A DNA stretch of 37,014 bases from a virus. Location: IMG/VR virus record IMGVR_UViG_3300033183_000049, positions 1 to 37,014 of that record, one strand, 5' to 3'. This document shows, piece by piece, positions 1-37,014 of the stretch. The notes beneath the pieces are model-generated. The model did no database searches and was not told the DNA's origin. It saw nothing but the letters and a program-made list of their open reading frames with translations. The position numbers were made by a program, and so were the translations under genes. The stretch's first letter is position 1, and each line of letters begins with the position of its first letter.

Positions 1-141
1 GATTACCTTAGACGACCTAATGACCTACATCAACATAGCCACAGCAGTAGTTGCCGTGGCTTCAACCATAGCAAGCATGACGGATACACCAAAGGACGAT
101 GAGATCATTGGTAAAGTCTATAAGGTGCTTAACGTCTTTGC
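1..141. repeat. Terminal identical repeat, copy 1 (same as 36874..37014)
   Basis: I compared the first 141 nt (gattaccttagacgacc...aacgtctttgc) with the last 141 nt of the window and they match base for base. Confidence 0.95.
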
Positions 142-2694: not shown

Positions 2695-5588
2695 TGGGTT
2701 TGGTCAACTTAGACGGTAGTCCTCTTAATTTTACAGCAGTTAACCCGTTGTCTACAGGTCAACAACAGCAGAACACACTTCCTGACTATAGTTGGATGAC
2801 TCCTGCAGCACAGCCTATGTTTGAAACAGCTCCTGTGGTTGACTTGGGTATTGAAACTATTCAACCTATTGAAACTGTCGTTGACCCGTTTGCTGATACT
2901 ACTGTAGACGCAGCTCCTGTTTATGACACCCCTACCTATGTAGCTATAGGGCAAGACGAACAGTTGATGGGTAGTGACCTTGATACTATCTGGGGTAACT
3001 TACGCTCTAATGAAAACCAATACGCCAACACCTATGGAGGCTCTGAAGCAGAGCAACGTATGGCGTACTACGCAGACCCCACTGGTTACGATGCGGGTAT
3101 TCGGGATTTAACCAGCGGTATTCGCCAAGGTGAGCAGGATTACTTAGATTGGGCTACTGAGAATGAAGTGTCAGCTTTTAATTACACAGGTGACCCTAAC
3201 AAGTTTCAAGCTGAAAAAGTATTCTTAAACACCACTGATTTATCAAAAGACCAAGCAATGCGTTTGTTTCAGTTGCAAGACCCTGAGATGTACAGTTACT
3301 TGTCAAGCAAAGGTTCTTGGGTTGACTCCGATGGTGGTGTTCGTTTTGAGTGGGATAACCCTAGCTTTGCTGAACAGTACGCAATTCCATTAGCTAACCT
3401 TGCCTTAAGCTTAGGAAGCTTAGGCACTGGCGGTGCTTGGAATCTTGCTAATACAGCAATAAGCTTAGCTACTGGTGAACTGTCAGTAAAGGACTTCATC
3501 AAGCAGGTGGCAATAAACATCGCCGCAGGTGAACTTGGGGATATGTTGGGTGAAGCAGCAGCTACCTCAGAAACCTATAAGATGGTCAGAGACGCTGTGT
3601 CGGACGTCACTGGTTTAGACACACTTAGCACCGAAGCTATCCTTAATGATGTAGCAGGTAATGTTGCCGTTGGTAACACAGACTTAGAGAGTATTGCTGT
3701 AAGTGCCATTGATACATACAATAAAGCCAATGCCCCTGTGGCTGAATCTAAAGTAGAGGCTCAACAACAGCAAACATTAGTAGACCCTAATGCAGGTCTT
3801 TTATTTACTACTGGTTCAGACGCTCGTGCACCTGTGGCTAGTATTGAGACTGCGCCTTTAGTTGATGACCCTCTGGGTACTACTGAGGCTGCACAAAACT
3901 TTGTAGCAACTCCAGATGTAGTACCAGAAGAAACTGTTGTTACTGATGTAGCTTCACCTTCAGGTATGCTTACAGACACTACCGCACCTACACTAAGTTA
4001 TGACAAATGGTATAACGAAGTTAACTCTCTAGGGGAAGTTCAGTATCTAAAAGACGCTAACGGCAATACGGTCGAAGGTGTCTATGTTAAAGATGGTAAG
4101 ATAGTTGCAGACCCCTTGCTTAACGATCAAATGAGCGCAGGGTCTAAGTTATTGTTGGAAGAGTACGTCCCTGCAATGCAAGAGAAATTAGACAGTGGTG
4201 AGCTATTTACAGGGTCAACTGTTGAAGTATCAGCAACTGAGCATTCTAAAATTGCTGACATGGTTATGGATGAAACAACCTATTTAGATAACCTAAGTGA
4301 CTTGTTTACACCGATTGATAAGCCAGAAGAGGTTGTCGTCACAGCGCAGCCTGAGACTCCACAAGACACTACTTATGATTTAGCTGAGACTTCTCCTTTA
4401 GATTTACAAGACCCCACGTTGGTCTTTACACCCCCTACGCAACCAGAGCCTGTAGAACCTACGCCTACAGAACCTACTCAAGACACAGGAGGTCAACAAG
4501 GAGGTCAACAAGGAGGTCAACAAGGAGGCGGCATGATGCAACCTACTGTACCAACTCCAGTAGAACCTGCTCAACCACGGCAACCAGAGCCTACGCAACC
4601 AACACCAGTTGACCCTACTAAGTCAGAAGAATACAAGGCTTTACAAGGTGACCTAGAAAAAGCCAATGAAGCTAAAAGTGGACTTGAGTCAGAACTAGAA
4701 GACACCAAAGCTGCTTTGGATGACGCTAAAGCTGAGTACGATAACTTGCTTGATAAGTCCAGTGATGAAGCTAAAGGTTTACAAGAAGACATAGACGCAC
4801 TTGAGTTAGGTTTAGAGGGTGTACAGTCAGACCTTGATGCTGCCAATGCTACTGTCTCTGCTAAACAAGGTGAACTAAACGTAGCTAAAGAAGACTACGC
4901 AGCTCTACAGGAACAAGGTAAAGCAGATGTAGCTGAAGCTAAAGCTGAAGGTGAAAAAGCCGTAGAAGCTGCTAAGGCTGAAGGTGAACAAAACGTCAAG
5001 GACGCTGTAGCTGCAGGTGAACAAGCCGTAGCAGACGCCAAAGCCGAAGGTGAGCAAGCTGTTAAAGACGCAGTAGCTGAAGGTGAAGCCGCTGTTAAAG
5101 CTGCAGAAGCTGAAGGTGAAGCTGCTGTTAAAGCTGCTAAAGAAGCTGCAGACAAAGCTGTAGCAGACGCCAAAGCTGCAGGAGAGAAGGCTGTCAAGGA
5201 TGCTGAGGCTAAGGCTGCTTCAGATGCTAAGGCTGCTAAGGAAGCCTCTGACAAAGCTCTAGCGGACGCTAAAGCTGCAGGACAAGCTGCTGTAGATGCT
5301 GCAGTTGCTGCAGTTGCTGCAGGTATTGCTGCTGCAGGTGAAGCAAGAGCTGAAGGATTTGGAGAAGGTAAAGAAGAGGGATATGGTGAAGGTTATGGCG
5401 AGGGTCTTGGAGAAGGTAAAGCCCAGGGATATGGTACTGGGTTATTAGCAGGACAACAAAGGGCAGGTGGTCAGGCATTTACACCATACACAGGAAATAT
5501 TAATACACAGCTTACTCGCGTAGAGTACCCACAACAACAAACAGCAATGGATTACGTAGACCAATTATTAGCGAGATTTAGACAATGA
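2694..5588 (+). CDS. Large virion-associated protein with several low-complexity repeat modules (964 aa)
   Basis: TAATG overlap with the upstream gene and the long uninterrupted ORF. It contains a P/T/Q-rich linker, (GGQQ)3, a coiled-coil stretch, 12 hendecad repeats and G-aromatic-G-E repeats. It sits directly upstream of the putative tail genes. Confidence 0.7.
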   Translation: MGLVNLDGSPLNFTAVNPLSTGQQQQNTLPDYSWMTPAAQPMFETAPVVDLGIETIQPIETVVDPFADTTVDAAPVYDTPTYVAIGQDEQLMGSDLDTIWGNLRSNENQYANTYGGSEAEQRMAYYADPTGYDAGIRDLTSGIRQGEQDYLDWATENEVSAFNYTGDPNKFQAEKVFLNTTDLSKDQAMRLFQLQDPEMYSYLSSKGSWVDSDGGVRFEWDNPSFAEQYAIPLANLALSLGSLGTGGAWNLANTAISLATGELSVKDFIKQVAINIAAGELGDMLGEAAATSETYKMVRDAVSDVTGLDTLSTEAILNDVAGNVAVGNTDLESIAVSAIDTYNKANAPVAESKVEAQQQQTLVDPNAGLLFTTGSDARAPVASIETAPLVDDPLGTTEAAQNFVATPDVVPEETVVTDVASPSGMLTDTTAPTLSYDKWYNEVNSLGEVQYLKDANGNTVEGVYVKDGKIVADPLLNDQMSAGSKLLLEEYVPAMQEKLDSGELFTGSTVEVSATEHSKIADMVMDETTYLDNLSDLFTPIDKPEEVVVTAQPETPQDTTYDLAETSPLDLQDPTLVFTPPTQPEPVEPTPTEPTQDTGGQQGGQQGGQQGGGMMQPTVPTPVEPAQPRQPEPTQPTPVDPTKSEEYKALQGDLEKANEAKSGLESELEDTKAALDDAKAEYDNLLDKSSDEAKGLQEDIDALELGLEGVQSDLDAANATVSAKQGELNVAKEDYAALQEQGKADVAEAKAEGEKAVEAAKAEGEQNVKDAVAAGEQAVADAKAEGEQAVKDAVAEGEAAVKAAEAEGEAAVKAAKEAADKAVADAKAAGEKAVKDAEAKAASDAKAAKEASDKALADAKAAGQAAVDAAVAAVAAGIAAAGEARAEGFGEGKEEGYGEGYGEGLGEGKAQGYGTGLLAGQQRAGGQAFTPYTGNINTQLTRVEYPQQQTAMDYVDQLLARFRQ
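4488..4528 (+). repeat. Perfect 12-nt tandem repeat (ggaggtcaacaa x3.4) encoding (GGQQ)n
   Basis: Units at 4488-4499, 4500-4511 and 4512-4523 are identical, followed by a partial unit ggagg. Confidence 0.9.
4938..5333 (+). repeat. Twelve in-frame 33-nt (11-residue) repeats, consensus A-[KV]-A-E-G-E-x-A-V-x-D
   Basis: The translated stretch AKAEGEKAVEA...AVAAVAAGIAA partitions exactly into 12 x 11 residues. Units 5076-5108 and 5109-5141 are near-identical at the DNA level. Confidence 0.8.
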
Positions 5589-6234: not shown

Positions 6235-7752
6235 ATGGCACAACCACTACAGAACATTAACATTGCTGCTCCTGCATTCAAAGGGTTAAACACTCAGGAT
6301 AGCCCTTTGTCTGGAGACCCGCAGTTTGCTTCTGTAGCTGACAACGTAGTTATTGACTCCTATGGTCGTATTGGTTCACGTAGAGGGTTGACATTATTAA
6401 CTACTGACGCTACAGAACTTGGAAGTGATAAACCTCATGCTCTTCACGAGTACGAGGACGCTGCGGGTAATCTCAAGGTATTCTCCGTTGGTAACAGTAA
6501 AATCCTATCGGGTACAACAACACTAGTTGACGAGACACCTGCAAGTTACACTATTACCGATGAGCATTTTCAGATTGTCAACTTTAATGACAACTGTTAC
6601 TTCTTTAACGCTAGTCACGAACCTTTGGTTTACAACACGACCTTGGGTGCTGTCACTAAGATGTCAAGCATTACAGGTTACTCAGGCACTGCTCCTCAGG
6701 GTTTTATAGCTCTAGGAGCTTTTGGTCGTCTTTGGGTCAGTGGTGTACCAAGTGCTCCAAACATGGTTTACTGGAGTGACTTATTAAGTGGTCATAAGTG
6801 GGACACAGGCACGTCTGGTTCACTTAACTTAGACAAAGTATGGCCTGATGGTAGCGACAGGGTTACTGGTCTTGCTGCATGGAATAACCATTTAGTTATC
6901 TTTGGGTACAACTCTATTGTCATCTACCAAGGTGCTGAGTCTCCTTCAACGATGTCCTTGGCTGACACCATTAGCGGCATTGGCTGTGTAGCTCGTAACA
7001 CCATCCAAGGTACTGGTAGTGACTTATTGTTCTTAAGTGCTCGTGGTGTTATGTCCCTTGGTCGTACCATTCAAGAGAAGTCAGCTCCTTTACGTGACGT
7101 GAGTATGAATGTACGTGATGACCTAATTGCTCTTTGGAAGCTACAGGACGAAGAAATCTATAGCTGCTACTCAGCTCGCTATGGGTTCTACTTGTTGGTC
7201 TTGCCTACAAACAGTGTTGTCTATTGTTTTGACGTAAGGGCATCACTTGAGAATGGAGCATTTAGGGTTACACGTTGGACTACGGACAAGCATTATAGCT
7301 TTGCTGTACGTCAAGACGACACAATCCTTGTGGGTAACTCTAACGGTATCTCAACGTACTCAGGTTACTTGGACAATGGTGACACTTACACAGCTCGGTA
7401 CTTTAGTAATCCATTGAGCTTTGGTGACCCAAGTCACATTAAGTTCCTTAAAAAGATTAACCCTACGTTTATTGGTGGTGCTACAACAACGTTCTCCGTT
7501 AAGTGGGCATATGACTTTGGTAGTGACTACAAAGCACAGACGTACACCTTAGGTGGTTCTACTATTGCATACTACAATGAGTCTGAGTACAACGATGCAG
7601 AGTACACAGCGGGTACACAGGTGTCTGCACCTAAGATTAACTGTACGGGTTCAGGTAACCTAGTAACCATAGGCATGGAGGCAACCATTAACGGTGCTCC
7701 AATATCAATTCAAGAGTTTAATATACAAGCAACGATAGGACGGATGTACTAA
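6235..7752 (+). CDS. Virion structural protein, tail tubular B / nozzle-like (505 aa)
   Basis: ATG 6235 lies 2 nt after the upstream stop. The sequence looks beta-rich. The call is positional (following the gp11-like gene) and was not confirmed by a search. Confidence 0.45.
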   Translation: MAQPLQNINIAAPAFKGLNTQDSPLSGDPQFASVADNVVIDSYGRIGSRRGLTLLTTDATELGSDKPHALHEYEDAAGNLKVFSVGNSKILSGTTTLVDETPASYTITDEHFQIVNFNDNCYFFNASHEPLVYNTTLGAVTKMSSITGYSGTAPQGFIALGAFGRLWVSGVPSAPNMVYWSDLLSGHKWDTGTSGSLNLDKVWPDGSDRVTGLAAWNNHLVIFGYNSIVIYQGAESPSTMSLADTISGIGCVARNTIQGTGSDLLFLSARGVMSLGRTIQEKSAPLRDVSMNVRDDLIALWKLQDEEIYSCYSARYGFYLLVLPTNSVVYCFDVRASLENGAFRVTRWTTDKHYSFAVRQDDTILVGNSNGISTYSGYLDNGDTYTARYFSNPLSFGDPSHIKFLKKINPTFIGGATTTFSVKWAYDFGSDYKAQTYTLGGSTIAYYNESEYNDAEYTAGTQVSAPKINCTGSGNLVTIGMEATINGAPISIQEFNIQATIGRMY

Positions 7753-18987: not shown

Positions 18988-20628
18988 TTAATGGGTGTCT
19001 GCCCATGACGTTCCAATTTTAAACTCACCGTCTTGTGGACAGCGCATATTAAAATGTAAACCCGCGTCAATAATGGATTGTTTAGCTATTAATCCAACAG
19101 CCTTACCAAACCGTGCAGGTGTTTCAAATTGAAACTCATCATGAACTTGTGCGACAAGTTTAAATGGGATGTCGTTTTGTGTCAAGCGTGTATGCGCGAG
19201 CACGACGGCCTTCTTCATAACAATAGCACCGCAGCTTTGTAGCAATCGGTTGAGTGACTTATAATCCTCGTCAACCCACACACGTCTGCCATCAAGACCA
19301 GGTACTGATTTGTTATTCTCTGCAATCCTTTTGACTTTGTCAATCAGTTGCTTTAATGCGGGGGTCTTACGTAGGAATGTATCGCGTATACGCTTACCAT
19401 CTTTCGCACTACCATCCACAATAGTTCCAAGTTTAGCATCACCTGCACCATAGATAAGACCGTATATCATTGTCTTAGCCATGTTACGTTCTGGTAATCC
19501 TGCTGCTTGTTGGTTGTAGGTGTGAATGTCACCATCTAATATCTGCTCCGTATACTTATCGTCTTGCATATAATGTGCTAAGCAACGTAGCTCAAGCCCA
19601 CTGGCGTCACAGCCTACTAACACGTTACCCTCGTCAACGGTAAAGCATTCACGTGCTGTCTTTAACGATGGTATTTGTGCTAGGTTAGGTGAGCTATGTG
19701 TCATTCGTCCTGTGATAGCACCGCACGTATTGACTCGACCGTGTATGCGATGGGTAGTAGCGTCGCAAGAATCAATCCAAGAAGTAACCATTCCGTTGAG
19801 CTTAACAAGTTGTAGATACTCAGAGCAGAGCTGTGCTTCTTCCTTGTTAATTGAAGCCAACGTGTCTTCATTGATGACAGGCGTACCGGTCGGTGTAAAT
19901 TTATTAAACTTGACACCAAGGCTCGAAAGTCTCTTAGCAATCTGCTGCCTACTCCCAACATTGAAAACTTCAACATCATCCTTCAACCTCTTACCTGTCT
20001 TCTCGCTCCACCGTTCTGTGACAATAGGTGGGAAGCGTTGTTGTAAATCATCTTCAATAGCTTGCATACGATTAGTCATGTCTGTTTGCCATTGTACAGC
20101 TAACGGAAAGTCAAGTTTGAATCCATTGATTTCTTGCTGCTTAGTTATACGGGCAACATCATGCTCCAGTTGTATAGATTCCTGGCTAAACTTCATCTTG
20201 TCTGCTTGGTTAATCAAATGATGGTATAGCTTAGCATTAACCATAACGTCACGTTTACAATATGTACCCATCTCTTCAGTGTATCCACCGTCGAAGTCTT
20301 CAACTTCAAAGTCCATCTTGGGATAACCAAGCCTAATACCCCAGGCTTTAAGTGAATGCCCACCATCACGCATAGGGGCAAGCAAACGAGACAACGTCAA
20401 CGTGTCGAACTGTCTATGCTCAGGTATGCGAATACCCCACACACGTTCCAACACAGGGAAGTCGAAACCTATTCCGTTATGTGCCACTACAACACCATCG
20501 TCGAGGTCTAAGAGACGCTGAAGCTCATCTGCGTCAAACACCTCTACAACAGGAATGTCGTTAACTTTAACACATACAACCCATATCGTGTCATGCGCTA
20601 AGTTGGTTTCAATATCTAATACAATCAC
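18988..20628 (-). CDS. Family A DNA polymerase with 3'-5' exonuclease domain
   Basis: Exo I (VLDIETN), motif A (DASGLELR), motif B (RNMAKTMIYGLIYGAG) and motif C (QVHDEF). The ORF-track start at 20634 is TTG; GTG 20628 has AGAGGA 6 nt upstream, so the start is uncertain by 2 codons. Confidence 0.9.
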   Translation of the reverse strand: MIVLDIETNLAHDTIWVVCVKVNDIPVVEVFDADELQRLLDLDDGVVVAHNGIGFDFPVLERVWGIRIPEHRQFDTLTLSRLLAPMRDGGHSLKAWGIRLGYPKMDFEVEDFDGGYTEEMGTYCKRDVMVNAKLYHHLINQADKMKFSQESIQLEHDVARITKQQEINGFKLDFPLAVQWQTDMTNRMQAIEDDLQQRFPPIVTERWSEKTGKRLKDDVEVFNVGSRQQIAKRLSSLGVKFNKFTPTGTPVINEDTLASINKEEAQLCSEYLQLVKLNGMVTSWIDSCDATTHRIHGRVNTCGAITGRMTHSSPNLAQIPSLKTARECFTVDEGNVLVGCDASGLELRCLAHYMQDDKYTEQILDGDIHTYNQQAAGLPERNMAKTMIYGLIYGAGDAKLGTIVDGSAKDGKRIRDTFLRKTPALKQLIDKVKRIAENNKSVPGLDGRRVWVDEDYKSLNRLLQSCGAIVMKKAVVLAHTRLTQNDIPFKLVAQVHDEFQFETPARFGKAVGLIAKQSIIDAGLHFNMRCPQDGEFKIGTSWADTH

Positions 20629-20822
20629 GACCAATCCTCTTCCGTACTCGGGTCAACACAGTCTAATACATCTGTATAATCTGTGTCAATCTCATCATCT
20701 AAGCAGTCGAACGAGTGTCGATAGCACGTTGTACACAAGTCTGCAAAATGATTTGTTTCGGGAGTACGGAAACGCAGCTCCGCATCGCTTAATATCTTGT
20801 CACAAGCTACACACCTACTCAT
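20625..20822 (-). CDS. Small Cys4 zinc-finger protein with acidic tail (65 aa)
   Basis: ATG start with an ATGA overlap to the primase-helicase stop. CVAC...CTTC motif. Confidence 0.55.
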   Translation of the reverse strand: MSRCVACDKILSDAELRFRTPETNHFADLCTTCYRHSFDCLDDEIDTDYTDVLDCVDPSTEEDWS

Positions 20823-24900: not shown

Positions 24901-24996
24901 CTATAAAGTTAACATATTTACAATTGTGTCAGCTAATGCCCATAGTGTAAACACCGCCAGGCATAACATAATATTTTGTTTGTCTTGTTTGCTCAT
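24901..24996 (-). CDS. Possible 31-aa hydrophobic peptide, first early ORF, not in the ORF track
   Basis: Hand translation gives MSKQDKQNIMLCLAVFTLWALADTIVNMLTL. GGAGATAGG lies just upstream of ATG 24996, and the stop TAG is 11 nt before the next ATG. Confidence 0.4.
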   Translation of the reverse strand: MSKQDKQNIMLCLAVFTLWALADTIVNMLTL

Positions 24997-25040: not shown

Positions 25041-25069
25041 ACTGTATACATGGCGATATTAAATGTCAA
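25041..25069 (-). promoter_or_regulatory. Candidate early promoter (TTGACA-17 nt-TACAGT) with upstream A/T tandem repeat
   Basis: Plus-strand tgtcaa at 25064-69 and actgta at 25041-46. Immediately upstream (in the minus sense) the unit aattattttc is repeated twice (25070-25089), which looks UP-element-like. Confidence 0.5.
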
Positions 25070-25182
25070 CAATTATTTTCAATTATTTTCAAATTAATTT
25101 ATGAATTCCTTTAAAGTCAATAACTTAGCTATGTAATTATTTTGTATTGATTGGCAATATAATACAATACAGTTGTTATTGT

Positions 25183-25594
25183 CTGTATAGTGTGTGCTAT
25201 GTTGTGGCTGTATAGTATAGGCTGCTACACAGTCCCCCACACTGACTACACAGCACAACACAGCCTGGCACAGACTACGCAGCTATTACTGGTGTTACTT
25301 AACTACACAGTTGTTACCAAACTACACAGTGTAAAGTGTAACTGTACAGTTTACAGAGGGGCGGGGAGGGGGGGTTGGCTGTGTAGTTTTTATGTTGTAG
25401 CCTCTTAGACACAAAAAGGGGTGAATTAGACTACTACACAGCCACTAGCGTAGGCAATGTAACTAATTAATTATAAAAAAGAAACTAAATTAACTACACT
25501 ACTGTACAAGCATACAGTATAAGGACAGGTTATATAGAACTACACAGTCATAAAAACTATGAATACTGTACACCGGCCTTCGAAACTACACAGT
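25183..25594. repeat. Iteron array: 8 copies of CTACACAG (7 direct, 1 inverted) plus degenerate copies
   Basis: Exact copies at 25225-32, 25246-53, 25303-10, 25322-29, 25379-86 (inverted), 25434-41, 25540-47 and 25586-93; seven extend to ACTACACAG. Variants: actacgcag at 25274-82, actacact at 25493-500, and ctgtatagt at 25183-91 and 25208-16. Confidence 0.85.
25358..25378 (+). other. G-rich tract GGGGCGGGGAGGGGGGGTTGG (potential G-quadruplex)
   Basis: G-runs of 4, 4 and 7 are separated by single nucleotides. No comparable tract stood out elsewhere in the window, though I did not scan exhaustively. Confidence 0.6.
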
Positions 25595-25650
25595 CAACAC
25601 AGCGTACACAGGCCAATAAAGAATAAATTAAAAGAAATAATAAATATTAC

Positions 25651-25679
25651 TTGACTTTTTAATAAAAGTATGCTATACT
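25651..25679 (+). promoter_or_regulatory. Late-arm promoter, TTGACT-17 nt-TATACT with TGn extended -10
   Basis: -35 at 25651-56, TGC at 25671-73 and -10 at 25674-79. It shares the 14-mer TATGCTATACTATT with the promoter at 30705. Confidence 0.7.
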
Positions 25680-25860
25680 ATTCATATAATGAACGCTTCA
25701 TACTATGAAGCCAAGACACACTATTAACATAAACCATCTATTATTCATAAAACATAAAAATAAAAACCAACTCTTATAACAATATACATACCAATATATC
25801 AATATTACCAATTTACATAACAATATAACTATATAGACAAACCCTAAGGGAGAATTTGTC

Positions 25861-26274
25861 ATGTCAAAAGACAACAATGAAAGTGGTCGTGTAAAAGGAA
25901 GACCAAGAAAAGAAGCTATAGCTGCTAAAACCACAGGTAAAAGAGTTGGTCGGGGACGTCCGAAAGGAGATGCAGGTATAATTAACGAGTATAAAGCTCG
26001 TATGTTAGCATCTCCAAAAAGTAGAAAAGTTCTTGACTCTATATTTGATGCTGCTTTAGACAATGACCATAAGAATCAAGCAGCAGCGTGGAAACTCGTC
26101 ATGGATAGAATACTTCCTGTAGCTGCTTTTGAAAAGGATGTAATATCAGGAGCATCAAGAAACGCTATTCAGATTAACATAACGGGTGTACCTAACGTTA
26201 ATGTTGGTAGTAGTGATTCTAAAGAGGATGAAGCAATAGATGGAGACTATGTAGATGTTGACCACAATGACTAA
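25861..26274 (+). CDS. AT-hook DNA-binding protein, possible small terminase subunit (137 aa)
   Basis: SD AAGGGAGA. There are two AT-hook-like motifs (GRPRK, GRGRPKG), then a helical domain and an acidic tail. It is the first gene of the late arm, two genes upstream of terL. The TerS role is a positional inference. Confidence 0.45.
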   Translation: MSKDNNESGRVKGRPRKEAIAAKTTGKRVGRGRPKGDAGIINEYKARMLASPKSRKVLDSIFDAALDNDHKNQAAAWKLVMDRILPVAAFEKDVISGASRNAIQINITGVPNVNVGSSDSKEDEAIDGDYVDVDHND

Positions 26275-28224: not shown

Positions 28225-30279
28225 ATGGTTAAAGTATACGACATTAACGAAGGTGCTGAAGAGCCTATCATCATCGAAGAATCCCTTGATGAATGGGTAC
28301 AATTTAAGTGTGACGAGTGGCGTGACCACTTTGAGGCCAACTACAGTCAAAAGTTTGATGAATACTATCGTCTTTGGCGTGGTATTTGGGCTGCTGAGGA
28401 TAAAACTAGGGAGTCGGAACGCTCTCGTATCATCTCCCCTGCCCTACAACAGGCCGTAGAGTCCTCTGTAGCGGAGATGGAGGAGGCTACCTTCGGAAGA
28501 GGGCAGTGGTTTGACATACGTGATGACTATCAAGACCAAGAAACTGGTGACATTGCGTACCTTAAGCGTCAACTTACGTATGACTTTAAGAAAACTAAGA
28601 TACGTAAAGCAGTAGCTGAATGTCTCATTAACTCAGCGGTCTTTGGTACTGGTGTTGCAGAGGTTGTCCTTGAGGACGTTAAGGAGATGAAACCTGCTAC
28701 GCAACCTATTATGGACGGACAAATGCAAGCCGTGGGTGTCAACATTAGTGACCGTACAGTAGTTAAATTACGTCCAGTAATGCCTCAGAACTTCCTTATT
28801 GACCCTGTAGCTACGTCCATTGACGAAGCCTTAGGTGTAGCTATTGATGAGTTTGTGTCTCGTCACCTTGTGGAGCAACTACAGGAACAAGGCGTATATC
28901 GTAATGTTTACCTTGGTAATGCCGCTGAAGACTTTGACATTGAGCCAGACAACGACCTAACAATGTACCAAGACGACAAGATTCGGTTAACTAAGTACTA
29001 CGGTCTTGTCCCTCGTCACTTGTTGATGGAGGAAGCTGAGGAAGGTGAAGCTACAGAACCCAGTGACAGCGAAAGTTACTACGTAGAGGCCATTGTTGTC
29101 TTAGGCAACGGCCAACTCTTGAAGGCCGAAGAAAACCCATACATGATGCAAGACCGTCCAGTAGTGGCATTCCCTTGGGATGTAGTTCCAAGTCGCTTCT
29201 GGGGTCGTGGTATCTGTGAGAAAGGCTACAACTCCCAAAAGGCGTTGGACGCTGAGATTAGAGCACGTATTGATGCTCTTGCCCTAACTGTTCATCCTAT
29301 GATGGCTATGGACGCAACACGCATTCCCAGAGGCTCTCGACCAGAAGTCAGAGCAGGGAAACTCTTACTTACCAATGGAGACCCCCGTGAAGTTTTACAC
29401 CCATTCAACTTTGGACAAGTTGGACAAATTACATTTGCTCAAGCACAAGCACTACAGGGCATGGTACAGCAAGCAACTGGTGCTGTGGATAGCACAGGGC
29501 TTGCAGGGCAGGTTAATGGAGAAGCTACTGCTGCTGGCATCTCTATGGGTCTTGGGGCAGTCATTAAGCGTCATAAGCGCACCCTTATAAACTTCCAAGA
29601 GTCATTCCTAATACCCTTCGTTGAGAAGGCAGCATGGCGTTATATGCAGTTTGAACCTGAGCTATATCCAGTTAAGGACTACAACTTCTGTGCTACAAGC
29701 ACCTTGGGTATCATTGCACGTGAGTACGAGACTACACAGTTGGTACAGTTGTTACAAACTATGTCCCCAGAGTCACCTGCGTACCCTGTGTTAATCCAGA
29801 GCATTGTGGACAACATGAACTTGAGTAACCGTGAAGAGATACTCAATGTGTTGCGTCAAGCACAACAGCCTAATCCTGAAGCACAACAGGCTCAACAGGC
29901 AATGCAACAAGCTCAGATGGCCTTCCAAGCAGCTCAGACTGCTACCCTACAGGCACAAGCTCAAGAGTCTCAGGCACGTGCTCAGAAGCTCTCAGTAGAG
30001 GCTATGCTTGCACCACGTGAAGTTGAGATTGACAAGATTAGAGCCGTTGGTACGTCTATGGACTCCAATGACGGTGACGAAAGAGAATTCCAACGTAAGC
30101 TTAAGATAGCTGAGTTGGCACTTAAAGAAAAAGCAATTGACAATAAACAAGGAGCTACCAATAATGGTAATAACTCAGCGAGAATTCAACAAGGCAATGG
30201 AGGAAATCAACCTCAGCTACAGCAACCTGTACAAGCGAGTGCAAACCCTAGAGTCCCAACTCAAGGAGGTATCCAATAA
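28225..30279 (+). CDS. Portal (head-to-tail connector) protein (684 aa)
   Basis: Called from its size, its position just after terL and before the scaffold and capsid genes, and its Gln-rich C-terminal tail. Not confirmed by a search. Confidence 0.75.
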   Translation: MVKVYDINEGAEEPIIIEESLDEWVQFKCDEWRDHFEANYSQKFDEYYRLWRGIWAAEDKTRESERSRIISPALQQAVESSVAEMEEATFGRGQWFDIRDDYQDQETGDIAYLKRQLTYDFKKTKIRKAVAECLINSAVFGTGVAEVVLEDVKEMKPATQPIMDGQMQAVGVNISDRTVVKLRPVMPQNFLIDPVATSIDEALGVAIDEFVSRHLVEQLQEQGVYRNVYLGNAAEDFDIEPDNDLTMYQDDKIRLTKYYGLVPRHLLMEEAEEGEATEPSDSESYYVEAIVVLGNGQLLKAEENPYMMQDRPVVAFPWDVVPSRFWGRGICEKGYNSQKALDAEIRARIDALALTVHPMMAMDATRIPRGSRPEVRAGKLLLTNGDPREVLHPFNFGQVGQITFAQAQALQGMVQQATGAVDSTGLAGQVNGEATAAGISMGLGAVIKRHKRTLINFQESFLIPFVEKAAWRYMQFEPELYPVKDYNFCATSTLGIIAREYETTQLVQLLQTMSPESPAYPVLIQSIVDNMNLSNREEILNVLRQAQQPNPEAQQAQQAMQQAQMAFQAAQTATLQAQAQESQARAQKLSVEAMLAPREVEIDKIRAVGTSMDSNDGDEREFQRKLKIAELALKEKAIDNKQGATNNGNNSARIQQGNGGNQPQLQQPVQASANPRVPTQGGIQ

Positions 30280-30575
30280 TGCCAACCAAGAACAAGAAAG
30301 ACAGTCGTCTGGAACGAGCAGGAGTAAGCGGGTACAACAAGCCAAAGCGGACTCCTAATCATCCTAAGAAATCTCATGTAGTAGTTGCCAAGGAAGGTGA
30401 CAAAGTTAAAACCATACGCTTTGGTGAACAAGGAGCTAAAACAGCAGGTAAACCAAAAGCAGGTGAATCTGAGGCAATGAAGAAGAAACGTAAGAGCTTT
30501 AAGGCTCGACACGGTAAGAACATTGCTAAAGGTAAGATGTCTGCAGCGTATTGGGCTGATAAGGTGAAATGGTAA
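30279..30575 (+). CDS. Highly basic small protein (98 aa)
   Basis: TAATG overlap. It is Lys/Arg-rich with the strings GYNKPKRTPNHPKKSHVVVAK..IRFGEQG...RH.KN...SAAYWA, a pattern I recall from other phage genomes. Function unknown. Confidence 0.6.
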   Translation: MPTKNKKDSRLERAGVSGYNKPKRTPNHPKKSHVVVAKEGDKVKTIRFGEQGAKTAGKPKAGESEAMKKKRKSFKARHGKNIAKGKMSAAYWADKVKW

Positions 30576-33670: not shown

Positions 33671-33706
33671 CTTTATTCGTTATCTTTCTTAGTAGGGGAC
33701 TTACTA

Positions 33707-34687
33707 ATGCCATTATACAGGGGCAGCGGAGGCGCAGGAGATTCATCTACAGATGCTTATGCGTCAACTATCTCTACGTACGCACAGACTGCTACTAACA
33801 AAGCTAATGAAGCATCCGCTAGTGCAACTGCGGCTTCTACGTCAGCAACTAATGCAGCCACTAGCGCAACTGCAGCTTCTACTTCAGCAACTAACGCAGC
33901 AACTTCAGAAACCAATGCATCCACATCGGCCTCAGGAGCTGCTACAAGCGCAGCTAACGCTGCCAGTAGTGCCACTGCAGCAGCCGCTAGTGAAACAGCA
34001 GCAGCAAGCTCTGAGAGTGCTTCAGCGACATCGGCTACTAATGCTGCTACTTCAGCAACTAATGCATCTACAAGTGAAACTAATGCAGCAACTTCAGCAA
34101 CATCAGCAAGTACCTCAGCAACTAATGCAGCTAATTCAGCAAGTGCAGCAAGTACGTCTGAGAGTAATGCGTCAACTTCTGCTACAAACGCTGCTACAAG
34201 TGAAACTAACGCAGCCACAAGTGCTACAGCAGCACAGGCAGTCTTAGACAACATTGAAGGTTTCTTTCTAGGGGCACAAGCAAGTAATCCTACAGTTGAC
34301 CTTAATGGCAATGCGTTGACTGCGGGCGACTGGTATCTAAACACTACTAACAACTCTACGTACATCTATGACGGTAGCAGTTGGAACACAATGAACCCAG
34401 ACCTCATTGGTGACACAACGCCACAACTAGGCGGTACATTGGACGCCAATGGTAACTCCATTGACATGGGTACTAACACCATTACTGACACTAAGGTTGG
34501 TAACTGGGATACAGCTTATGGATGGGGTGACCACGGTGCTGTAGGGTACATCACAGGATACACAGTTACTGAGGGTGACGTAACGGCACATCAGGCAGCC
34601 CTAAGTATCACTGAGTCACAAATAAGCGATCTACAAACATATTTAACAACAGTTGACGGTTTAACTATTGACGGAGGCACATTCTAA
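33707..34687 (+). CDS. Tail fibre protein with Ala/Ser/Thr heptad-repeat shaft (326 aa)
   Basis: There are about 20 heptads of the A[AS]TS[AE]TN type, followed by FLGAQASNPTVDLNGNALTAGDWYLNT...YIYDGSSW and LGGTLDANGNSI motifs that are common in phage fibres. It ends in TIDGGTF. Confidence 0.75.
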   Translation: MPLYRGSGGAGDSSTDAYASTISTYAQTATNKANEASASATAASTSATNAATSATAASTSATNAATSETNASTSASGAATSAANAASSATAAAASETAAASSESASATSATNAATSATNASTSETNAATSATSASTSATNAANSASAASTSESNASTSATNAATSETNAATSATAAQAVLDNIEGFFLGAQASNPTVDLNGNALTAGDWYLNTTNNSTYIYDGSSWNTMNPDLIGDTTPQLGGTLDANGNSIDMGTNTITDTKVGNWDTAYGWGDHGAVGYITGYTVTEGDVTAHQAALSITESQISDLQTYLTTVDGLTIDGGTF

Positions 34688-36595
34688 ATGGCGACCACGA
34701 TTAAACATAAAAGAGGAACTGCAGCTCCTACTGGTGGTGATTTAGCCGCAGGAGAACTTGGCCTCGACACAACAAACAAAAGAATCTACACCAGTACTAA
34801 TGGTACAGACATTATTGAAACTGGTGTAAACCCTGCCGCAGAAATCCAAGCAAACGCAGGTATTGCCTTACCAGATTCACAGAAGGCTACCTTTGGTGCT
34901 AGTGATGACTTGCAGATTTATCATGATGGTAGCAATAGTCGCATTGTTGATACAGGCACTGGGTCGCTGATACTGCAATCCAATCAGCTTGTATTTAAGA
35001 GTGCCGATGATTCAGAGATATTAGGTTATTCTGATGAAAACGGGGCATTTAATCTTTACTACAATGGTAGTCCCAAACTATCCACAACCTCCACAGGCAT
35101 TGACGTAACTGGTACTGTTACTGCTGATGGGCTGACTGTTAGTAAGCCTGGTTCTCAACAGATTTACTTTGATCGCAATGGTAGTTCTATAGGCTCAGGA
35201 AGTATTGGCGCTGATGTTAGCCAGGCTATGGGCATATGGGATACTGACGACAACAAAGTTGCAACTTTTTATCAGAATCAAGATGTAGCCTTCTACGAAG
35301 ACACTGGCACAACTGCTAAGTTCTTCTGGGATGCGTCTGCGGAGTCTTTGGGTATTGGTACTAGTAGTCCTAGCTATCCTTTACATATTTTAGGTTCACA
35401 TACTATTTATGGAGCAGAACTAGCCACAAGCTCTACAGCTACTACTAGCTACAACGTCATGCGATTCACACAGGGTACAGGTTCTGGTGCGCCTATAGGT
35501 TATGTAGGTACTGGTGGCAGTGCAACAAGTAACTCAGGCTTCGCAGGTGCTTTTGGTATAGGTACGCAGACATCAGCACCAGTTACGTTCTTGACTAACG
35601 ACGCAGAACGTATGCGTATCGACAGCAGCGGTAACTTGCTTGTTGGTAAGACTACAGCAAATAACACCACAGTCGGATTTACAGTGTATAACGACAATGG
35701 CTATTCGGTAGTTCGTGACAGTAACCCAGTAGGCATTTACAACCGATTGACAACCGATGGCGACATTGCAGTATTCCGCAAAGACGGCACAACTGTCGGG
35801 AGTATTGGTACTTATGATGGTCGTCCTTACTTAGCATCTACTACTTTAGGCATCCGTGTTTCAAATGCTTTGTTTCCGTCAAATACGTCAGGCGTAATTA
35901 CAGACGGTGCTTGTGATATTGGTGGGGCATCGGGACGCTTCAAAGACCTCTACCTATCAGGCGAGGCTAAGGTGACTTCATCAGGTGTAGACGGCACGTA
36001 TTCACCAATCTTACGGGGCATTTACTCTGGTAATAGCAACGAAACTAATACCATTGAAACAACAGTATCATCAGCTGCAGCAAACTCAGGCTTTAAGTTT
36101 AATGTATCAAACGGTGGCGGCTCTTCTGGCCAAACAGAAGCATTACGTATTACACGAGCAGGTACTTATGCGCCCTTGGGTATTCACTTAGGTGGCACAG
36201 GTTCGGCTAATCACTTGGATGATTATGAGACTGGGACGTTTACTCCTACATTAACCAACATATCAGGCGGTGCTATTACATATACTACCCAAACAGGACG
36301 CTACGCAAAAGTTGGTGATTTGGTAACAGTAGAGTATAAGATAACAGTTAATACCAATACACACACAACAGGAAATGTTGCAGTAGGGCTTCCATTCTCA
36401 AGTGGGTATAGTGGCGTTGTTGGTAACGGTTCTGTAGTTATAAACACAACAACGGTAAGCGATTTAACAGGGCATTCGTTCTTCTCTACTGATGCTAGTT
36501 CTCAGCTAACACGCTCAGGTGGTAACTATGTTACAGCAACGCAAATAACTAACGGCATTACTTTATCAGGATTTATTGTATACAGAACAGCTTAA
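34688..36595 (+). CDS. Tail fibre / receptor-binding protein (635 aa)
   Basis: The N-terminus IKHKRGTAAPTGGDLAAGELGLDTTNKRIYTS matches the conserved fibre N-terminal motif (Mtd-N-like, from memory). The body is Gly/Ser/Thr-rich and beta-type. Confidence 0.7.
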   Translation: MATTIKHKRGTAAPTGGDLAAGELGLDTTNKRIYTSTNGTDIIETGVNPAAEIQANAGIALPDSQKATFGASDDLQIYHDGSNSRIVDTGTGSLILQSNQLVFKSADDSEILGYSDENGAFNLYYNGSPKLSTTSTGIDVTGTVTADGLTVSKPGSQQIYFDRNGSSIGSGSIGADVSQAMGIWDTDDNKVATFYQNQDVAFYEDTGTTAKFFWDASAESLGIGTSSPSYPLHILGSHTIYGAELATSSTATTSYNVMRFTQGTGSGAPIGYVGTGGSATSNSGFAGAFGIGTQTSAPVTFLTNDAERMRIDSSGNLLVGKTTANNTTVGFTVYNDNGYSVVRDSNPVGIYNRLTTDGDIAVFRKDGTTVGSIGTYDGRPYLASTTLGIRVSNALFPSNTSGVITDGACDIGGASGRFKDLYLSGEAKVTSSGVDGTYSPILRGIYSGNSNETNTIETTVSSAAANSGFKFNVSNGGGSSGQTEALRITRAGTYAPLGIHLGGTGSANHLDDYETGTFTPTLTNISGGAITYTTQTGRYAKVGDLVTVEYKITVNTNTHTTGNVAVGLPFSSGYSGVVGNGSVVINTTTVSDLTGHSFFSTDASSQLTRSGGNYVTATQITNGITLSGFIVYRTA

Positions 36596-36647: not shown

Positions 36648-36875
36648 ATGGCACTTACTAAAGAACTAATCGTAGATAAAATTGAGATTGTCGCAGGTAC
36701 AGACGAAGACGGTAACACTGTCAACCATGTACAAGTACGCACAGCTACACGAGTCTTAGAAGACGGTGAGGTACTCAGCAGCTCTTATCACCGTCATGTG
36801 GTTAGCGAAGGTGATGACTACAGCAACGAAGACGCTAAAGTACAAGCAGTGTGTGCAGCGGTATTCACATCATGA
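36648..36875 (+). CDS. Hypothetical protein (75 aa)
   Basis: SD AAGAGGA upstream of ATG 36648, with an ATGA overlap to the next ORF. No motif recognised. Confidence 0.55.
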   Translation: MALTKELIVDKIEIVAGTDEDGNTVNHVQVRTATRVLEDGEVLSSSYHRHVVSEGDDYSNEDAKVQAVCAAVFTS

Positions 36876-37014
36876 TTACCTTAGACGACCTAATGACCTA
36901 CATCAACATAGCCACAGCAGTAGTTGCCGTGGCTTCAACCATAGCAAGCATGACGGATACACCAAAGGACGATGAGATCATTGGTAAAGTCTATAAGGTG
37001 CTTAACGTCTTTGC
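36872..37014 (+). CDS. Small membrane protein (holin-like candidate), 5' part; continues at window position 2
   Basis: ATG 36872 overlaps the upstream TGA. The ORF runs off the window end inside the 141-nt duplicated segment and closes at 169. Confidence 0.55.
   Translation, partial: MITLDDLMTYINIATAVVAVASTIASMTDTPKDDEIIGKVYKVLNVF
36874..37014. repeat. Terminal identical repeat, copy 2 (same as 1..141)
   Basis: Base-for-base identity with 1..141. Confidence 0.95.

Follow-up and report, generated by a model that had tools for sequence, protein, structure and literature searches.

Plasmid origins that combine iterons with DnaA boxes, such as RK2 oriV, also contain G+C-rich and A+T-rich segments. 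Phage P4 carries type I iterons in ori and crr, TGTTCACC octamers bound by the alpha primase-helicase, a protein with a dedicated C-terminal DNA-binding domain. The R sites of lambda cosB, the P1 pac hexamers, and SPP1 pacL and pacR are recognition arrays for terminase. Two-base gaps giving an 11-bp phasing have been described for DnaA arrays in E. coli oriC (PMC4451416), and the bacterial basal unwinding system is recognized by three or more NAN trios lying no further than 16 bp from a DnaA box (PMC8287927). In phage T5, eight DnaA boxes, paired 3 bp apart in inverted repeats of the terminal repeat, were proposed to stop DNA injection (bioRxiv 10.1101/866236). Here a dense array of short boxes, built on the nonamer ACTACACAG, is compared with these systems. 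The array belongs to an uncultured marine podovirus-like phage, IMG/VR record IMGVR_UViG_3300033183_000049, of which the whole stretch from position 1 to 37,014 (37,014 nucleotides) is referred to below as the window. The array may serve a replication origin, or central control region, as its initiator-box cassette, a reading to which we give about an even chance.

The core of the motif is the octamer CTACACAG, with A preferred directly before it. The octamer occurs 11 times in the window against 2.46 expected; eight of these copies, seven direct and one inverted (25379), lie within 25225-25593, that is, in about 370 bp, exactly as a previous sequence-only reading had counted them. The nonamer ACTACACAG is present in eight copies against 0.87 expected from shuffled sequences, a number reached in none of 100 shuffles, and seven of the eight fall within 25245-25593 (six on the plus strand and one on the minus strand at 25379-25387), in agreement with the seven nonamer extensions reported before; the eighth is at 29731. 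The longer form AACTACACAGT, previously mentioned as several extended copies, was found four times (starts at 25301, 25320, 25538, and 25584), and the five or more one-mismatch variants then noticed, two of them inverted at the left edge, correspond to five nonamer variants at 25183 and 25208 (both on the minus strand), 25224, 25255, and 25274. Octamer variants with one mismatch also occur at 25595 and 25604, bringing the boxes with at most one mismatch to the octamer to 14, between 25183 and 25611. Two details were revised: the array had been placed at 25183-25594 and its right edge reaches 25611, and the single outside copy noted at 29731-40 (octamer start 29732) exists but is accompanied by two more CTACACAG copies, at 649 and, on the minus strand, at 6984. 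The density of exact octamers in 25170-25620 is 215-fold that of the rest of the genome, with no other 451-bp interval near that value, so that the motif is clustered and not spread at similar density, as a genome-wide count might have shown. Spacings between boxes are 9, 9, 10, 19, 19, 21, 25, 28, 46, and 106 bp, mostly 9-10 or 19-21. Arrays of the iteron type are characterized by a short motif that recurs four or more times and is kept in relatives; here 14 boxes, 8 of them exact, are present.

More than 600 stretches in IMG/VR encode a relative of the phage TerL protein, from which 80 loci were kept (75-92% identical, mostly 75-79%). Comparison of the same intergenic region among related genomes, suggested by the sequence-only reading as a check, revealed that relatives keep the motif: CTACACAG arrays occupy the homologous place, upstream of a gene for an AT-hook protein, in L086 (TerL 60% identical), L109 (70%), L141 (73%), L094, and L320-L324, where L320 is a near-identical strain and L321-L324 are 87%-related phages. 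At the homologous position, 14 of the 80 TerL loci have at least five copies of the DnaA-box core, with 7-14 boxes each at no more than one mismatch. Examples of these sister-phage arrays are L002:1500-1660, L006:1460-1700, and L023:185-375, together with 11 other loci. In a logo made from 149 of their sites, TTATCCACA is almost invariant; where the sites differ, they do so chiefly at position 5, which is the ‘N’ in the consensus for DnaA. Same-strand neighbours are separated by exactly 11 bp in 61 of 110 cases, and by multiples of 11 in 78. As the boxes of the sister phages are perfect DnaA boxes, the protein that binds them is therefore expected to be the host DnaA; no description of such arrays in these phages was found in the literature searched.

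Other lineages make use of further units, including CRTGCCAAC, a 31-bp-period unit containing AGTCTAACTGTTG, AGTCTAAC units, and, in one lineage, a GAGACACTC-like unit. Locus L063 is a composite, with GTTGGCA/TGCCAAC repeats and three DnaA boxes beside a run of G residues, and resembles the plasmid origins that join iterons to DnaA boxes. The TerL of the window is nearer to that of DnaA-type phages (77-79%), in which 5-14 of the boxes are perfect, than to that of phages having its own boxes (60-73%). No difference in G+C content was found between the box types. In the CRTGCCAAC-type phages (L038:2780-3350) each early gene has a leader, AACACAAGGA(A/G), shortly before its ATG; the leader recurs as a translation-initiation or regulatory motif and is separate from the box array.

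The boxes themselves behave as selected elements. In an alignment of the window with L320, L322, and L323 that begins just past the G-run and ends at the late promoter, none of the 40 box columns varies, whereas 32 of the 221 other columns do and 189 are invariant (Fisher p = 0.0067), suggesting that the boxes are under purifying selection. The left half of L320 (L320:3225-3320, versus 25195-25207 in the window) has a 12-bp GGCTATGTTGTG unit expanded to about eight tandem copies, and a 20-bp insertion brings two extra boxes; the left half of the array thus changes by whole units. This change of copy number between near-identical strains, along with the frequent breaking of assemblies here, would be expected of a functionless, hypervariable tandem-repeat region generated by replication slippage. 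Such an explanation is very improbable, given that the same octamer is kept in phages whose TerL proteins are only 60% identical, that box columns are invariant where flanks vary, and that the copies are dispersed with unique spacers between them, which is not the form of a simple tandem repeat. An open reading frame (ORF) for 72 residues with a GTG start spans the array and the G-run (25190-25408, plus strand) and is almost certainly spurious; the region is swapped for unrelated repeats in relatives.

The ACTACACAG copies probably serve as boxes for a sequence-specific protein that binds double-stranded DNA, and replication would start at the array. From left to right the region consists of the leftward promoter, A+T-rich DNA, the left boxes, the G-run, a 23-nt core, the right boxes, and A+T-rich DNA with the rightward promoter; the flanks of the array have 15-27% G+C in a composition profile, and these same flanks hold the promoters and the 5′ untranslated region. 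An origin is favoured because this succession of A+T-rich, box, G+C-rich, box, and A+T-rich segments is placed where transcription and GC skew diverge, and the layout follows the common scheme of theta-type origins that employ DnaA, whether or not iterons are present. In the proposed mechanism, the binding protein would oligomerize on loading at boxes that lie roughly one or two turns of the helix apart, and the bound oligomer would help to open the adjoining A+T-rich DNA. The primase-helicase, similar to gp4 of phage T7, and DNA polymerase A could next initiate replication in both directions, each co-oriented with one of the divergent gene blocks. Among the three roles put forward by the sequence-only reading, an origin with initiator iterons is the best supported, by the phased DnaA-box arrays at the homologous site and by the L063 composite, although the word iteron in its strict sense, which implies a Rep protein encoded by the element, goes beyond these results, since no phage initiator gene was found. 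The region thus cannot be counted as a classical iteron origin, as no Rep gene was found, nor as a DnaA-box cluster, as the window array has no such boxes.

Several observations weigh against an origin. Gene orientation and cumulative GC skew both switch at the array, and the skew switch is confounded with that of the coding strand. Box orientation varies among CTACACAG-type phages, being mostly plus in the window and L086 and mostly minus in L141 and L109, which is unusual for a directional unwinding system. The arrays of exclusively perfect DnaA boxes in relatives would also suit a titration or sensing role. No canonical DnaA box (TT(A/T)TNCACA, at most one mismatch) is found in the window array; the only one-mismatch match near the boxes is TTAGACACA at 25405, inside the conserved core. 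Neither an initiator or helix-turn-helix family nor a protein specific to CTACACAG-type phages was found among the early ORFs. A search of 185,579 bacterial genomes for CTACACAG triplets (three copies within 30 nt) gave, among the matches listed, only tandem repeats or microsatellites, coding repeats, and Pseudomonas REP-like elements, and no oriC-like CTACACAG cluster of a host, a result that is uninformative rather than negative because tight spacing was demanded. Scanning IMG/VR with the same triple pattern yielded no new relatives of the CTACACAG type.

Some of these points are better accommodated if the boxes bind a host regulator, DnaA in the sister phages and another protein here, in an array that is not itself an origin. 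Its purpose would be to time the early and late promoters or couple them to host physiology, or to titrate the protein off the host chromosome as phage DNA amplifies. The array does lie between divergent promoters, the non-conserved orientation of boxes suits binding as such over directional unwinding, and the arrays of relatives, made almost only of perfect high-affinity DnaA boxes, are more like a titration locus than like the mixed-affinity oriC (PMC4451416). A precedent is found in T5-like phages: the noncoding region that holds their eight conserved DnaA boxes is not considered an origin (bioRxiv 10.1101/866236). On the other side, the boxes are 115-550 bp off the -35 elements of the promoters, not over them, and the constant G-run and core, the A+T-rich flanks, and the L063 composite resemble the architecture of an origin. 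A regulatory, sensing, or decoy array is accordingly considered rather unlikely as the sole explanation, though the array could have a regulatory role and be an origin at the same time. Sites for an early/late regulator, another of the three roles named by the sequence-only reading, are possible on these grounds.

A variant of the origin model holds that the window boxes are diverged, low-affinity DnaA boxes, cooperatively bound by the host ATP-DnaA. AACTACACA keeps the TNCACA of TTATNCACA, that is, six of nine DnaA-box positions, and variant units CTGTGTGTAAC occur in register within the true DnaA arrays of L002 and L063. The low-affinity sites of oriC likewise carry two or more deviating bases and form phased arrays (PMC4451416); the prevailing spacings of the window array are 9-10 or 19-21 bp. 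However, positions 1-3 of the window box are AAC instead of TTW, and at position 3 the C matches the core in its conservation (47 of 48 sites), which points to a distinct specificity rather than decay; the window has no high-affinity anchor box; and other lineages employ boxes unrelated to DnaA (CRTGCCAAC, AGTCTAAC). This variant is quite improbable, and binding of DnaA itself to the window box is thought to be unlikely because A and C at positions 2-3, the start of ACTACACAG, are conserved in their own right and because an anchor box is missing.

Returning to the origin model, the question is which protein recognizes the boxes. Among the conserved phage proteins, none varies in step with box type. 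Identity of the AT-hook protein is 51-74% over all the differing box types and that of TerL 60-79% over unrelated ones, and the former was rejected as the determinant of box specificity. The primase-helicase of the window is 45% identical to that of L024 (another type), 43% to that of L012 (DnaA type), and 35% to that of L141 (same type), and was rejected since its similarity does not follow box type. GP88 and a putative methyltransferase, whose genes adjoin the array, are missing from L320, which has the same boxes, and were discarded as well. A 65-residue CxxC...CxxC zinc-ribbon protein with an acidic tail, encoded between the primase-helicase and DNA polymerase genes (20625-20822, minus strand), is the only small early protein common to the window and L141; it occurs in all box types and was likewise dismissed. 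The simplest reading is that the cassettes recruit host proteins, because TTATCCACA is the binding site of the host initiator DnaA, and that the binder in the window is a host protein other than canonical DnaA. Judged from sequence comparison, a host-encoded binder is also the most likely one for the window; an alternative would be a very small, fast-evolving phage protein.

What remains constant around the exchangeable boxes is a central element. A G-run (GGGGnGGGGnGGGG) followed about 24 nt further on by GTAGCCnCYYAGRCACAAAAAAG was present in 37 of 37 loci, of any box type, these being the loci where the upstream stretch was detected by a rule that itself demanded a G-run beside an ACAAAA-type motif. 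In all lineages the G-run and the GTAGCC..AGACACAAAAAAG core lie beside the arrays, and a box-like element is located just past the G-run in other lineages also. RNAalifold predicted 0 conserved pairs for 35 sequences of the element, and Rfam gave no match at E ≤ 1; the element was therefore read as a DNA-level site. A conserved hairpin after the G-run, whose stems seemed by eye to co-vary, was abandoned for the same reasons. A G-quadruplex was also rejected as a conserved feature: the window run allows four G3 tracts and many relatives have only two or three. A central sigma-70 promoter, indicated by a TTGACA after the G-run in many relatives, has no acceptable -10 element at 16-18 nt; the window has TTGGCT in place of that TTGACA, and the promoter scan reports none there. 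Chi-like sites were discarded because orientation is not conserved and relatives hold DnaA boxes at this position. Three roles are conceivable for the G-run and core: packaging as a pac or cos site, service as the core of an origin, or recognition by a conserved phage protein.

The first of these roles relates to the proposal that the boxes are bound by a small terminase subunit, the AT-hook protein, and that the G-run and core are the cleavage site. The region is directly upstream of the putative terS-terL block, a conserved element stands in the middle with boxes to its left and right, an arrangement also known from P1 pac, and the G-rich run recalls the G+C-rich cos overhangs. Moreover, the ends of four contigs from the 87%-related phages fall 0-80 nt beyond the right side of the G-run, and other metagenomic contigs break in the region. 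Nevertheless, a site bound by terminase should co-vary with it, and here box type changes fully while the AT-hook protein and TerL stay 51-79% identical; relatives have perfect DnaA boxes at the same position; and the contig ends are scattered over about 300 nt, with no single coordinate. Packaging or terminus repeats bound by the AT-hook protein were the third role offered by the sequence-only reading and proved the weakest of its three, as synteny fits, but the boxes do not co-vary with this protein and the contig ends are imprecise. Packaging is therefore regarded as improbable. The counter-argument covers the boxes only; should packaging take place here, the G-run with the core would be a better candidate for a pac or cos site.

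With respect to contig ends in general, many independent contigs (the starts of L321-L324, L390/L392/L393, and L004/L056) end within about 250 nt of the G-run or array, at differing bases. These could be assembly breaks at a microdiverse repeat or poly-G, or else ragged physical ends.

A broader model unites the constant and the variable parts of the region. The G-run and 23-nt core between divergent promoters would form a fixed platform that takes interchangeable, lineage-specific cassettes for different DNA-binding proteins, namely perfect phased DnaA boxes or CTACACAG, CRTGCCAAC, AGTCTAAC-containing, or GAGACACTC-type units; CTACACAG would then mark a host factor or a very small phage protein that replaces DnaA as the organiser of the origin. 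This model is tentative, possible but with the balance against it. If true, swapping cassettes would be a way to switch dependence on host factors. The coordinates of the features of the region are collected in Table 1.

Table 1. Features of the noncoding region and its borders in the window.
Feature	Position	Strand	Details
Left A+T-rich flank	25050..25170		18-20% G+C, tandem AATTATTTTCAATT repeat; composition profile, repeat family D13
Leftward (early) sigma-70-like promoter	25041..25069	-	TTGACA-17-TACAGT; promoter scan, 10/12 matches
Left box array	25183..25329	both	inverted CTGTATAG at 25183, 25208
Left box array, direct boxes	25225, 25246, 25256, 25275, 25303, 25322		CAACACAG at 25256, CTACGCAG at 25275
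G-run GGGGCGGGGAGGGGGGG	25358..25374	+	same place in 37/37 loci, any box type
Inverted box	25379..25387	-	CTGTGTAGT on the plus strand; 4 nt past the G-run
Family-wide core GTAGCCTCTTAGACACAAAAAGG	25397..25419	+	23 nt; invariant or near-invariant columns, 35-sequence alignment
Right box array	25433..25611	+	ACTACACAG at 25433, 25539, 25585; tandem CAACACAG at 25595 and GTACACAG at 25604
Palindrome, LexA-box form	25500..25519		TACTGT-N8-ACAGTA; sequence
Rightward (late) promoter	25651..25679	+	TTGACT-17-TATACT, TG extension; promoter scan
AT-hook protein, possible small terminase subunit	25861..26274	+	137 residues, GRPRK and GRGRPKG motifs; first late-operon gene; ORF

The array is contained in an 864-bp noncoding gap, the only long one of the genome, extending from a small leftward ORF (24901-24996) to the ATG at 25861; with sigma-70-like sites on both sides, this agrees with its earlier description as the sole long noncoding stretch between divergent promoters. 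Being upstream of both outward-facing promoters, the array is transcribed from neither. In the near-identical strain L320 the -35 TTGACA of the leftward promoter and the downstream sequence are kept, and the -10 TACAGT has one base different. The rightward promoter is identical in L320-L324 and has equivalents in L002, L086, L109, and L141. The left A+T-rich flank is a candidate DNA-unwinding region or UP element. The leftward early block includes genes for ribonucleotide reductase, DNA polymerase A, the gp4-like primase-helicase, and an HNH nuclease, and the rightward late block those for the AT-hook protein, endolysin, TerL, portal, and further late proteins.

The AT-hook protein is kept in every relative examined and has at least 5,392 homologues, none with a functional name; no Pfam, TerS-family, or PDB sequence match was found, and its structure model is of low confidence, with a mean predicted local distance difference test score (pLDDT) of 55.6. 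It is possibly the small terminase subunit TerS, on the sole basis of synteny, its gene being directly before that of TerL in L002.

The TACTGTACAAGCATACAGTA palindrome (25500-25519) fits the gamma/beta-proteobacterial LexA form CTGT-N8-ACAG, and might be a clue to the host or an SOS link, or a product of chance in a region rich in CTGT and ACAG. Its half-sites are kept and its spacer varies in L322 and L323, and a single change affects a half-site in L320. The 5′ leader of the late operon, some 180 nt long (25680-25860), includes a stem-loop, GCTTCATAGTATGAAGC, at 25695-25711 and a 29-nt tandem pair at 25777-25834; the equivalent leader in L002 and L007 has CTTAAG-rich repeats. Elsewhere in the genome, the octamers GAAGGTGA and CCTTCAGC are clustered at 4940-5330, and AGTTGCTG and ACTAATGC at 33700-33900, in 5-6 copies each, indicating tandem coding repeats in proteins of 964 and 326 residues, respectively.

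The first 141 bases of the window (1-141) are identical to the last (36874-37014), and the assembly is therefore circular or terminally redundant, which puts the genome at about 36,873 bp; assemblers run with k = 141 typically leave an overlap of 141. The family is very large, with more than 5,000 metagenomic members, and has no cultured relative, TerL being at most 42% identical to that of any isolate. The intergenic region has no DNA match in INPHARED. The DNA polymerase is 42% identical to that of pelagiphage HTVC103P and 38% to those of roseophages. Short nucleotide matches to roseophages, with CRP-4 (85% over 81 nt, 30495-30575) and with CRP-207 (97% over 38 nt, 35075-35112, in a tail gene), give a weak hint of a gene pool common with phages of marine Rhodobacteraceae.

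Hardly anything is known of replication initiation in abundant uncultured marine podoviruses or of the host factors that they need. If the reading as an origin is true, the noncoding centre of these genomes records the use of host factors, with some lineages dependent on DnaA and others not. The array supplies an 8-9-bp bait for identifying its binding protein and perhaps also the host, and the G-run and core provide an annotation landmark for the origin or control region in thousands of metagenomic contigs. The DnaA arrays of the sister phages would exemplify clearly how a lytic phage recruits or titrates the initiator of its host.

With the theta origins of plasmids and plasmid-prophages that join iterons to DnaA boxes (RK2 oriV, P1 oriR, and the pSC101 ori), the region has in common short direct repeats in clusters, together with A+T-rich flanks and a segment rich in G+C, all within a few hundred noncoding base pairs, with DnaA boxes in relatives only (combined in L063). 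It differs in that no Rep initiator was found near the repeats, that the window is devoid of a DnaA box, and that the phage boxes have 8-9 bp, against 17-22 bp, and an orientation that varies between relatives. P4 is similar in having arrays of 8-bp boxes in a phage origin and replication by a phage primase-helicase, but the gp4-like protein here has no detected DNA-binding domain and its similarity does not follow box type. The terminase arrays share the placing of repeats on either side of a central element, immediately upstream of terS-terL; the boxes described here, in contrast, do not co-vary with the putative TerS or with TerL.

The basal unwinding system was considered and rejected, as the phage G-run alone has 15-20 nt, versus a GC spacer of about 4 bp, and no DnaA-trio run follows it, only isolated TAG trinucleotides. 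With bacterial oriC and datA the likeness is found in the sister phages, whose 7-14 TTATCCACA boxes mostly follow the 11-bp phasing of the low-affinity arrays of oriC, whereas the window motif matches the TNCACA part only. The iss region of T5-like phages also presents ordered, conserved boxes for host DnaA in a large, repeat-rich noncoding region of a lytic phage (bioRxiv 10.1101/866236); in the family described here, the arrays are found instead where two promoters diverge, and related lineages have other motifs in their place.

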